DNA of 64,000 bases. Origin: Acidimicrobiia bacterium. Lineage in GTDB: Bacteria; Actinomycetota; Acidimicrobiia; Spongiisociales; ZC4RG35. Location: contig JAWOJB010000054.1 of assembly GCA_046484325.1 (NCBI GenBank), positions 2,287 to 66,286 of the forward strand, read 5' to 3'. Each line of letters begins with the position of its first letter. The first letter of the stretch is position 1. The notes beneath the pieces were generated by a model. It was not told the DNA's origin. It was given only the letters and a program-made list of their open reading frames with translations, and searched no databases. Position numbers and translations under genes: made by a program. Shown in pieces: positions 29,452 through 57,899 of the stretch.

Positions 29452-29514
29452 CGTGGACGCGAGACGTGCGTCATGAGACGTGAGTGGGATGTGAGGCGGG
29501 GAGCGTGAGACTCG
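29452..29514. repeat. Degenerate 7-nt periodic tract (GTGNGAC-like units)
   Basis: cgtggac gcgagac gtgcgtc atgagac gtgagtg ggatgtg aggcggg gagcgtg agactcg. Begins immediately after the TAG stop at 29449-29451 and overlaps the start region of the next gene. Confidence 0.45.
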
Positions 29515-53025: not shown

Positions 53026-53067
53026 GGTGCGCGATGCGCGGTGAGCCATGCGCATTGCGCTGTGCGC
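53026..53067. repeat. Tandem heptamer array, 6 units of NNTGCGC
   Basis: ggtgcgc gatgcgc ggtgagc catgcgc attgcgc tgtgcgc. First base directly follows the TGA stop at 53023-53025. Confidence 0.9.
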
Positions 53068-53078
53068 AGTCAGGTGTG

Positions 53079-53662: not shown

Positions 53663-54064
53663 TCAGTCAGGCCCCCGCCGGACGTCGGGCAGCACCTCGG
53701 AACGCAGGACGATCTCGTGACGGTAGGTGCGGTGGACCTCCTGCACTCGCCGGGCCGCCTCCCGTTCCGCCGTCTGGAGCCGTTCCCGCAGGCGCTGGAT
53801 CTGTCCCTCGAGCTTCCGCACATGTTCGGTGAGCTCGAGGACCCGCCGGACTCCTTCGAGGTTGAGCCCCTGCTCGGTGAGCTCCTGGATGAGGGCGAGC
53901 CTCTCGATGTCGGCCGGGGAGTACCGGCGGGTGCCGCCCGGCGTCCGGTACGGCTCGATGAGTCCCTTCCTCTCGTAGATGCGGAGGGTCTGAGGGTGCA
54001 TGCCCGCCAGCTCGGCGGCCACCGAGATCACGAAGACGGCCCGGGAATGCTCTCGACCTGCCAT
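53663..54064 (-). CDS. hspR: MerR-family heat shock repressor HspR
   Basis: FVISVAAELAGMHPQTLRIYERKGLIEPYRTPGGTRRYS. Last gene of the dnaK operon. Confidence 0.9.
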   Translation of the reverse strand: MAGREHSRAVFVISVAAELAGMHPQTLRIYERKGLIEPYRTPGGTRRYSPADIERLALIQELTEQGLNLEGVRRVLELTEHVRKLEGQIQRLRERLQTAEREAARRVQEVHRTYRHEIVLRSEVLPDVRRGPD

Positions 54065-54065
54065 G

Positions 54066-55187
54066 TCATACCCTCAGATGGGCGCGTACGTCCTCGGTCT
54101 CGTACGTCGCCAGTTGCTCGAGCAGCTTCTTCTCGTCCCGACTCAGCTTGCGGGGCACGGCCACCTCGACTTTGACCAGGAGGTCGCCTCCGCGGCCCCG
54201 GTCGGGCTGCACCCCCCGTCCCTTCACCCGGAACGTCTTGCCGCTCGGCGTGCCCGGAGGAACTTTGACGGTCACCGATCCGTCGAGCGTCGGGACGTGG
54301 ACCTTGGATCCGAGGGTCGCCTCGGTGAACGTGATCGGGACGGTGATCACGAGGTCGTTGCCCTTTCTGGTGAAGATCGGATGCCTCGCCACCGACACCC
54401 TTACGAGCAGATCCCCCGGTCGACCGCCGTTCCGGCCCGGCCCCCCGTGGCCTGCGAGCCGGATGGTGGAGCCGTCCTCCACGCCGGCGGGGACCCGGAC
54501 CTTGATCGTGCGCGTCCGCATCTCGGTGCCACGCCCGCGGCAGTTGCTGCACGGGTGGTCGATCTGACGGCCGGATCCGCCGCACTGGGGACAAGGCTGG
54601 GCGAAGGAGAAGAACCCCTGGTTCTGGGCGACCGTCCCCGAGCCCCGGCACGTGGGGCACGTCTGAGGTTGGGTACCCGGCTCGGCCCCGTTCCCGCCAC
54701 AGCGGCTGCAGGGTGCCTCGCCCCGGACCGAGACCTGGGTGGTGGCGCCCCGCACGGCGTCCTCGAACGACAGGTGGAGCTCGGCGGCGGTGTCGGGACC
54801 ACGCTGGGGTCCACCGCGACGCGATCCACCGAACCCGAAGAGGTCGCCGAGGCCGCCGAAACCACCGAGCAGGTCCGAGAGGTCTTCGACCCGCACCTGC
54901 TGGCCGCCACCGGTGAAGGGCCCGCCGCCCGGGAAGCCGGTGAACCCGCCGGACTCCACCAGCCGGCGCACCTGGTCGTACTCCTTGCGATGCTCGGGGT
55001 TGGAGAGGGTGGCGTAGGCCTCGGAGATCTGCTTGAACCGCTCCTCGGCGGCGGGGTCGCCCTGGTTGGCGTCCGGGTGGTACTGCTGGGCGAGCTTGCG
55101 GTAGGCGCGTTTGATCTCGTCGGCCGACGCACCGCTCGAGACCCCCAACTCCTGGTAGAAGTCCTTGTCCACCCAGTCGCGGTTCAT
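54066..55187 (-). CDS. dnaJ: Molecular chaperone DnaJ
   Basis: J domain with HPD (QQYHPDAN), G/F region and four CxxCxGxG zinc-finger repeats. Confidence 0.96.
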   Translation of the reverse strand: MNRDWVDKDFYQELGVSSGASADEIKRAYRKLAQQYHPDANQGDPAAEERFKQISEAYATLSNPEHRKEYDQVRRLVESGGFTGFPGGGPFTGGGQQVRVEDLSDLLGGFGGLGDLFGFGGSRRGGPQRGPDTAAELHLSFEDAVRGATTQVSVRGEAPCSRCGGNGAEPGTQPQTCPTCRGSGTVAQNQGFFSFAQPCPQCGGSGRQIDHPCSNCRGRGTEMRTRTIKVRVPAGVEDGSTIRLAGHGGPGRNGGRPGDLLVRVSVARHPIFTRKGNDLVITVPITFTEATLGSKVHVPTLDGSVTVKVPPGTPSGKTFRVKGRGVQPDRGRGGDLLVKVEVAVPRKLSRDEKKLLEQLATYETEDVRAHLRV

Positions 55188-55789
55188 GTGACCTCGGCTC
55201 GATCGGCGACCTCGACGAGGGCGGCACGGACCACCCGGCCGCGAAGTCGGTACCCCCGCCGGAGCTCCTTGGACACGATGAGCCCGCCGGTACCGTTCGC
55301 CGTCGAGCTCACGGCCTCGTGGATCTCGGGATCGAATGGCTCATCCCAGGTGGGCACCACCTCGAGCCCCTCGCCGGCGAGGATGTCGAGCAACAGCTGG
55401 TGGGTGCCGCGGACCCCGGCCAGCAGCTTCTGCTCGGTGTCCGACCGGGCCTCGATCGCCAGCGCGGCGTCGAGGCTGTCGAGCACCGGCAGCAGGGCCG
55501 CCACCACCCTCTCGGCCGCCCGTTCCACGGTCTGCTGTTGCTCGCGAAGGGCCCGCTTGCGGAAGTTGTCGAAATCTGCGGCGACCCGACGGAGGTCCTC
55601 GAGGTAGGCGGAGGCCTCGGCCCTGGCAGCGGCCACCTCCCGGAGGAGCAGGTCGATGGCCGCGTCGGGCTCACCGGGCAGCTCGAGCCCGAGGGATGCC
55701 GCATCCGGGGTCTCCTCGGGCCCGTGGGCCTCTGCCACCGGCAGGACCTCGCCCTCCACCACGTCGGACACCTGCGGCTCGTCGGACAT
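55184..55789 (-). CDS. grpE: Nucleotide exchange factor GrpE
   Basis: ORF 55184..55951. ATG 55789 (MSDEPQV) is chosen because the upstream part is the heptamer array. The start could also be GTG 55798. Confidence 0.9.
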   Translation of the reverse strand: MSDEPQVSDVVEGEVLPVAEAHGPEETPDAASLGLELPGEPDAAIDLLLREVAAARAEASAYLEDLRRVAADFDNFRKRALREQQQTVERAAERVVAALLPVLDSLDAALAIEARSDTEQKLLAGVRGTHQLLLDILAGEGLEVVPTWDEPFDPEIHEAVSSTANGTGGLIVSKELRRGYRLRGRVVRAALVEVADRAEVT

Positions 55790-55812
55790 GGACGTCACCT
55801 CGAAACCCGGCA

Positions 55813-55868
55813 GGTGCGACGTGCGACGTGGGATGTGGGACGTGGGACGTTGGACGTTGGACGTGAGA
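55813..55868. repeat. Tandem heptamer array, 8 units, with stepwise unit drift
   Basis: ggtgcga cgtgcga cgtggga tgtggga cgtggga cgttgga cgttgga cgtgaga. Lies between the dnaK stop (55878-55880) and the grpE start. Confidence 0.9.
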
Positions 55869-55877
55869 GGCGGCAGT

Positions 55878-57704
<1,827 letters not shown>

Positions 57705-57752: not shown

Positions 57753-57789
57753 GAGCTCATATCGTAGAACATGAGTCGACCATTGTCAC
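57753..57789 (-). promoter_or_regulatory. Candidate dnaK promoter (-35 GTGACA, 17-bp spacer, -10 TACGAT) with an overlapping inverted repeat
   Basis: The minus strand reads GTGACA atggtcgACTCATgttc TACGAT ATGAGCtcga. The CTCAT-N10-ATGAG repeat brackets the -10. The region is locally AT-richer. AGGAGGAGG Shine-Dalgarno lies before the ATG. Confidence 0.5.
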
Positions 57790-57850: not shown

Positions 57851-57899
57851 GTTCATTGAGCAGATGCGTGGCTCCAGCCCACGCCGTTGCTCAATGAAC
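57851..57899 (-). terminator. Long compound hairpin 7 nt downstream of the acyl-CoA ligase stop
   Basis: GTTCATTGAGCA gat GCGTGG ctccagc CCACGC cgt TGCTCAATGAAC. It has a 12-bp outer stem and a 6-bp inner stem. Confidence 0.6.

Follow-up and report, generated by a model that had tools for sequence, protein, structure and literature searches.

Prokaryotic long simple sequence repeats (LSSRs) have units of 5 to 11 nucleotides (nt), and their excess has been attributed to polymerase slippage (Mrazek, Guo & Shah 2007, as cited in PMC4679880 and PMC4692102). The heptamers of Xanthomonas (GGGAATC) and Nostoc PCC 7120 (GGGGAYT, e.g., between pecE and pecF) are G-rich and form quadruplexes, and their transcription has been reported (Rehm et al. 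[quoted passage not shown] Heterocystous cyanobacteria (STRR heptamers) and Beggiatoaceae (TAACTGA repeats) also have tandem heptamers dispersed over intergenic regions (PMC4679880). With respect to the junctions between genes, NTGA is the commonest motif of translational coupling, and coupling declines with distance (reviewed in PMC12548453). MIRUs (mycobacterial interspersed repetitive units), according to the summary given in that review, insert in such a way that coupling of an internal ORF at -4 nt results and the target gene is little affected (Supply et al. 1997 via PMC12548453).

The window, i.e., the whole 64,000-nt stretch of DNA analyzed here, contains an array of eight 7-nt units at positions 55813 to 55868. 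On the plus strand these units read ggtgcga, cgtgcga, cgtggga, tgtggga, cgtggga, cgttgga, cgttgga, and cgtgaga; on the minus strand, which is the coding strand of the surrounding genes, they read TCTCACG, TCCAACG, TCCAACG, TCCCACG, TCCCACA, TCCCACG, TCGCACG, and TCGCACC. This anatomy is directly established, as the sequence exactly matches the units listed in a preliminary description of this DNA, and TRF agrees with it, placing a repeat of period 7 at 55814 to 55865 (7.4 copies, 88% matches, score 69). Neighboring units had been stated to be at most two bases apart, and the distances along the array are 1, 1, 1, 1, 1, 0, and 2. Their sum of 7 compares with a permutation mean of 10.5 and is below that of 97.7% of all unit orderings (P = 0.023). 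The variant TCCAACG, present in three copies in all arrays of the family taken together, occurs here in two copies side by side. The proposed origin by local duplication and slippage is thus supported, because the order of the units is non-random. For the described walk of the unit core from TGCGA over TGGGA and TTGGA to TGAGA, the stepwise order was borne out; what changes from step to step is mostly the usual variable position 3 of the family, to which the local variant TCCAACG is added.

The genome to which the window belongs (G000) is a 2.45-Mb draft consisting of 104 contigs with 70% G+C. A TRF search of the whole genome for arrays of at least four copies yielded 45 arrays of period 7 versus 6, 6, and 1 for periods 4, 5, and 8, respectively. 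Most of the period-7 arrays have the unit TCNCACG (family A), with up to 19 copies, and the second family has the unit TGCGCAN. Runs of at least three TCNCACG units gave 30 hits, corresponding to approximately 28 loci, versus 0 in the base-shuffled whole genome. Over all arrays of the family, position 3 of the unit is variable (T, 79; C, 55; G, 41; A, 7), and the other six positions are more than 95% fixed. Family membership of the dnaK-grpE array is a matter of direct observation, and the array most likely represents one ordinary copy of this scattered family and no dedicated heat shock control site.

Heptanucleotide LSSRs, as far as they are characterized in the two articles cited first, are tandem 7-nt units that are overrepresented relative to other non-triplet periods, intergenic, lineage-specific, and thought to be born by slippage. 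The dnaK-grpE array shares these features: it has eight head-to-tail units and a TRF score of 69, nothing comparable occurs in the shuffled genome, and it belongs to a genome-wide, intergenic excess of period 7. Unlike the described examples, it has a new unit, TCNCACG, and a new host, an uncultured member of the Acidimicrobiia. No copy-number polymorphism was seen among four assemblies, namely the window and three metagenome contigs, in which the array is identical; these are more than 99.9% identical overall and hence represent one population. The locus is present in JGI samples 3300076001, 3300075934, and 3300077555. With the heptamers of Xanthomonas and Nostoc the array shares the stop-adjacent placement, as it begins 9 nt past the stop codon and the family mostly 1 to 9 nt past it, but it lacks the four or more runs of at least three G, with 8 G per 56 nt in the sense RNA and three GGG runs on the opposite strand.

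Two contig ends of the same genome (G000:C7:33108-33214 and G000:C25:13683-13815) possess a common flank and the common first 15 units of the longest array, which has at least 19 units. The assembly broke within this array, as could result from heterogeneity in length or from a limit set by read length.

Pfam searches confirmed that the array lies between dnaK and grpE in a heat shock operon, as described previously, with the order dnaK-grpE-dnaJ-hspR and all genes on the minus strand. The dnaK gene (55878 to 57704; 608 amino acids; HSP70, E = 4e-249) ends with a TGA at 55878 to 55880. The grpE gene (55184 to 55789) encodes 201 amino acids if started at the ATG at 55789, as in the JGI gene calls for the identical contigs, or 204 amino acids if started at the alternative in-frame GTG at 55798, and the gap between the two genes accordingly measures 79 to 88 nt. 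A Shine-Dalgarno-like sequence, GAGGTGA (55794 to 55800, minus strand), was read 4 nt before the grpE ATG. The other junctions of the operon are tightly coupled: the ATG of dnaJ (54066 to 55187) overlaps the grpE stop codon as ATGA, and the ATG of the gene for an hspR-like MerR-family regulator (53663 to 54064) follows 1 nt past the TGA of dnaJ (TGAcATG). Upstream of dnaK, the sole match to a sigma-70-like promoter is GTGACA-17-TACGAT at 57761 to 57789 on the minus strand, a consensus match only; inside the dnaK-grpE spacer, neither a promoter consensus nor an intrinsic-terminator consensus was found. A search of the spacer against Rfam gave no family, the single hit being sub-threshold noise, and a search of the window for the HspR operator (HAIR) consensus gave 0 matches. 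A stable structure or a pairing of the array with the Shine-Dalgarno sequence of grpE was considered and rejected, since a 7-bp pairing is predicted, yet the spacer RNA does not fold better than its shuffles (z = +0.53).

Between the stop codon of an AMP-binding gene and the promoter-like site of dnaK, the window contains a 21-nt inverted repeat (57851 to 57899; 86% complementary, 7-nt loop). TTGAGC...GCTCAA forms part of it, and a role as a terminator or as a divergent HspR operator is conceivable.

To describe where the arrays lie, genes were called with our own GC3-based caller (2272 genes, 88.7% coding). The resulting placement statistics are direct counts. Family-A arrays are nearly all intergenic; a co-oriented gene is the 5' neighbor for 19 of the 30 hits, and in 15 of these 19 its stop codon lies 1 to 9 nt upstream of the array. 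Where the neighboring genes converge (5 of 5 pairs), the array adjoins the stop codon of that gene for which it reads TCNCACG. The minority placements comprise six mostly short arrays in opposite sense between co-directional genes and four arrays in divergent regions. The dnaK-grpE array, with UCNCACG in the mRNA right after the stop codon, has the majority orientation of the family. Relative to the upstream gene, it had been described as oriented opposite to the plus-strand arrays, which is incorrect, and the suggestion that any function may reside at the DNA level or be strand-independent fails with this premise, because the orientation of the array is the norm of its family. As read from the sequence, TCNCACG in sense contains no stop codon, start codon, or Shine-Dalgarno-like sequence; the antisense reading CGTGNGA, on the other hand, has a GTG in each unit, purine-rich Shine-Dalgarno-like stretches, and a TGA if N is A. 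STRR and TAACTGA repeats are similar to TCNCACG in being genome-specific words, with function unproven for both, but TAACTGA repeats are located just upstream of starts and provide stops in all frames, whereas TCNCACG units abut stops and are stop-free in sense. A site-specific insertion target behind the stop adjacency was rejected for this genome, as the junction sequences after the stop codons have no common motif.

Sister arrays in sense orientation between co-directional genes, with Pfam as confirmation, lie at S10/L3 (12 units), NuoK/NuoL, IlvB/IlvN, SecY/Adk, ArgG/ArgH, PaaB/PaaC, a PafA/PafB-like pair, an FAA-hydrolase gene pair, HNH/MraZ, and two pairs of unrelated genes. The operons concerned include essential ones and ones that need equal amounts of their products.

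At S10/L3, where four relatives have a GTGA overlap, the junction is split by the 12-unit TCNCACG array (G000:C65:7336-7447). A consensus AAGGAGG and a new GTG come after the insert, and the N terminus of L3 is longer by approximately seven residues (MTARVSYPK-AILGEK versus MN-AILGEK).

The state of the junction in relatives was likewise observed directly. Scans of genomes and metagenomes with GrpE yielded no match above 67 to 70% identity, and the nearest genomes are ones with 58 to 70% GrpE identity. Their dnaK-grpE junctions show TGATG overlaps or spacers of 0 to 40 nt, a hairpin that extends across the dnaK stop codon, or, in five genomes, unrelated heptamer arrays, namely (GTCGGAR)7 in G024, (CGGCGGA)3 in G030, (CTRTCAG)4 in G026, (GAGTGGT)3.5 in G384, and two units in G006; most relatives have no array at this junction. 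The junctions S10/L3, NuoK/NuoL, and IlvB/IlvN are GTGA, ATGA, or TAATG overlaps in most relatives, and some of them are occupied by arrays in G024 and G384. Among 401 sampled genomes of the class, exact (TCNCACG)x4 occurs in only three, i.e., in the genome of the window, in G384, and, as a single match, in G006.

Many relatives possess a perfect hairpin centered on the dnaK stop codon, e.g., gagagcgccTGAggcgctctc (L082, L085, L086, L095, L096, L108, L114, and L206). The genome of the window has no such hairpin, and the hairpins of the relatives suggest that a stem-loop recurs at the 3' terminus of dnaK. Some junctions of G384 and G024 contain a pair of arrays whose units are complementary and inverted in order, e.g., (GTCGGAA)n...(TCTTCCG)n (L220, which is IlvB/IlvN of G384; L234:19403-19483; L221), and these pairs would fold as long hairpins built from heptamers.

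Analysis of the reading frames in the dnaK-grpE spacer revealed a putative relay mini-ORF of 28 codons plus stop (55795 to 55881, minus strand). Its start codon, GTG at 55881 to 55879, overlaps the dnaK TGA as GTGA, an overlap that requires just TCG in place of a TCC serine codon. The frame is open through the whole array and stops with the TGA at 55797 to 55795, which is part of the Shine-Dalgarno-like GAGGTGA, 5 nt upstream of the grpE ATG; this stop in turn overlaps, again as GTGA, the GTG at 55798 to 55796 that is in frame with grpE. This type of arrangement, A/GTGA...open frame...A/GTGA, was found in 7 of the 12 sense-oriented co-directional junctions of family A, i.e., dnaK/grpE, the FAA-hydrolase pair, IlvB/IlvN, NuoK/NuoL, S10/L3, SecY/Adk, and ArgG/ArgH, and there is no closed relay at the other five (EamA/MFS, PaaB/PaaC, PafA/PafB, GNAT/MBL, and HNH/MraZ). 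The start codons were compared with those of homologues by eye for five of the seven relay-closing junctions only (S10/L3, NuoK/NuoL, IlvB/IlvN, SecY/Adk, and ArgG/ArgH), and in all five the downstream starts agree with the N termini of the homologues.

When all co-directional junctions of the genome with spacers of 30 to 140 nt were considered, the strict relay occurred at 9 of 24 junctions with a period-7 array versus 31 of 408 junctions without one (Fisher P = 1e-4, odds ratio 7.3). In the related genome G024 (372 kb sampled), it was present at 7 of 7 array junctions versus 1 of 68 others (P = 4e-9), and in G384 at 2 of 6 array junctions. The apparent density of arrays in the latter two genomes is partly inflated, as the early sampling was biased toward known arrays; the idea that G024 and G384 are far richer in arrays was dropped after 20 added contig stretches (approximately 225 kb) had yielded only about six more. 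As the unit has 7 nt, each additional unit shifts the frame by one base, and closure of the frame consequently needs a particular copy number modulo 3. The NTGA motif at both ends is partly a relic of a split ancestral overlap; the closure of the frame itself is no such relic, because it is expected in one third of cases only.

The 31 array-free junctions of the window's genome that also have a closed NTGA-to-NTGA mini-ORF (e.g., C2:5199-5250, C5:19459-19537, and C16:9204-9279) are candidates for relay or small ORFs or for miscalled starts.

The explanation we favor, with a probability of roughly 55%, is that the dnaK-grpE array is a slippage-born microsatellite spacer kept in a relay-closing form, which would preserve the translational coupling from dnaK to grpE, so that the array would be tolerated rather than act as a heat-shock-specific regulator. 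In this proposal, (TCNCACG)n would be a lineage-specific heptanucleotide microsatellite that expanded by local duplication and slippage within an ancestrally very short or overlapping dnaK-grpE junction and that may persist because it is harmless to the operon in its present orientation and copy number. Ribosomes ending at the dnaK TGA would restart on the overlapping GTG, translate the repeat, terminate at the TGA that overlaps the GTG of the grpE frame, and then begin anew on grpE. The tight coupling of the rest of the operon would thereby be carried across the gap of 79 to 88 nt, in a manner akin to the MIRU repeats of mycobacteria. Both the translation of the mini-ORF and selection on the copy number modulo 3 are steps that we infer from sequence. 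Selection for relays would leave part of the placement bias unexplained, because the arrays of convergent pairs, which are unable to be relays, also abut stop codons.

The parallel to MIRUs, in terms of what the review cited above reports on them, lies in the location in an intercistronic region of an operon and in a small ORF coupled to both flanking genes by overlaps of stop and start codons (GTGA...28 codons...GTGA for dnaK-grpE). A MIRU, however, is a unit of approximately 46 to 101 bp of a mycobacterial sequence family, whereas the unit at dnaK-grpE has 7 nt and each slipped unit shifts the frame; with this unit size and no sequence relationship, the dnaK-grpE array is no MIRU. For the heptamers of Xanthomonas and Nostoc, the property of forming a relay ORF has not been reported (PMC4692102). 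A more general proposal would be that the heptamer microsatellites at operon junctions, including the dnaK-grpE array, are MIRU-like cassettes at NTGA overlaps, with the overlap duplicated on both sides, that survive only in relay-closing copy numbers (modulo 3) and orientations, in which ribosomes would pass from the upstream to the downstream gene. This generalization is tentative, and we consider the odds to be somewhat against it.

The cassettes of G024 are uniform, following the pattern TGA-(GTCGGAA)4-GYCAGAGG-N6-11-ATGA (L222 to L231 and L242 to L261). Given their uniform copy number and conserved Shine-Dalgarno-like 3' end, they look more like products of cassette copy-and-paste than of independent slippage.

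Among the alternatives, the one that survives best regards the array as neutral, i.e., as a selfish or accidental microsatellite without effect on expression, next to a grpE gene that is translated from its own Shine-Dalgarno sequence and with a relay-like frame that is coincidental. Several observations fit this account. Relay-like frames have a background of approximately 7.6% in array-free junctions, so that the arrangement at dnaK-grpE, taken alone, could be due to chance; grpE has a good Shine-Dalgarno sequence of its own, GAGGTGA, and thus may not need coupling; most relatives do without an array; the repeat is imperfect and interrupted and identical in the four assemblies of one population; and slippage is the explanation of Mrazek for the excess of heptamers, as related in PMC4679880. 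Conversely, closed relays are far commoner at array junctions, both in the genome of the window (P = 1e-4) and in G024 (P = 4e-9), and the biases in orientation and stop adjacency require at least purifying selection. We therefore rate neutrality as unlikely, albeit with appreciable weight left to it, and give preference to the coupling-preserving spacer.

The preliminary description had proposed that the array, as RNA, could serve for Rho loading or for processing and in this way set the dnaK:grpE stoichiometry. Formulated as a rival, this account holds that the untranslated, C-rich and G-poor repeat RNA is a rut-like Rho entry site or a processing site that lowers either transcription or RNA stability past dnaK, resulting in more dnaK than grpE and dnaJ. 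Its premise as to composition proved correct: the operon mRNA carries the array as UCUCACG UCCAACG UCCAACG UCCCACG UCCCACA UCCCACG UCGCACG UCGCACC, its 56 nt comprising 28 C and 8 G; equally skewed windows make up 0.034% of the genome. The array resembles rut sites in that its RNA is rich in C, poor in G, weakly structured, and located immediately past a stop codon, the RNA of the spacer being no more structured than its shuffles in the comparison given above; Rho is encoded in the genome (PF07497, 104.5 bits, at G000:C25:7617-7832), no intrinsic-terminator or promoter consensus lies within the spacer, and the hairpin at the dnaK stop codon in several relatives makes differential expression at this junction plausible.

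Set against this are several lines of evidence. The same repeat is found at S10/L3, NuoK/NuoL, IlvB/IlvN, SecY/Adk, and ArgG/ArgH, where polarity would be harmful, and the presence of sister arrays in essential and equimolar operons makes both a strong Rho terminator and a stoichiometry device particular to dnaK less likely. The gene of the autoregulator, hspR, is the last of the operon and requires read-through. Unlike rut sites, the dnaK-grpE spacer is short, probably translated, and of a kind that lies inside essential operons; the coupled ORF covers it, and its translation, if it occurs, would keep Rho off the RNA. Rho loading usually needs about 70 to 80 nt of ribosome-free RNA, and the 56-nt array in a gap of 79 to 88 nt may be at or below this length. 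Related genomes use purine-rich heptamers (GTCGGAA and GAGTGGT) in the same junction, which implies that C-richness is not a common property. Finally, a genome-wide signature of Rho terminators was sought in the form of a general C-skew after stop codons, and no such skew was found in this genome. The Rho idea is thus weakened rather than refuted; it appears distinctly unlikely to us, and more so than neutrality.

That the array binds protein, with one molecule of a single-strand-binding protein (a cold shock protein or ribosomal protein S1) per heptamer or with ACGT-containing DNA sites of a genome-wide regulon, is highly improbable, for although the unit is genome-specific and conserved at six of seven positions, CspB binds heptamer repeats with one protein per unit (according to the review in PMC4679880), and the same words recur between genera (e.g., TCTCACG in the genome of the window and in G384), no candidate binder was found, the flanking genes share no function, and in relatives these junctions contain units that are different and unrelated.

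The array taken alone is an ordinary intergenic heptanucleotide microsatellite and reveals no new heat shock control. Of wider value is the relay-framing pattern of heptamer arrays at operon junctions, in the genome of the window (9 of 24) as well as in G024 (7 of 7). If the frame is translated, this would explain how a fast-mutating repeat is tolerated in essential operons for ribosomal proteins, complex I, and chaperones, and the copy number would be constrained in steps of three units. Should the more general cassette proposal hold, relay closure would provide both a functional rule and a filter by selection behind the excess of 7-nt repeats that has long been noted, without an explanation, beside stop codons in many bacteria.

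A second, weak family-A array in the window (29452 to 29484; CGTGAGA-type units, TRF score 31) lies directly 3' of a plus-strand gene in the minority orientation. It presents GTG and TGA in the sense direction and is without a relay frame.

The genome also contains 38 copies of a hairpin module, H1, with the sequence TGTCCCCCAC-NNN-GTGGGGGAAGG, often inside larger mosaic repeats. In approximately 13 of the 38 copies, a heptamer array of one or the other family stands immediately before the hairpin, which makes the arrays a module of a REP/BOX-like mosaic element as well. The dnaK-grpE array differs from this element in that it is not followed by H1, no copy of which is present in the spacer. 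Within the window, H1 occurs just past the family-B array at 53027 to 53070, and in G024 the same hairpin lies within a relay frame of 49 codons.
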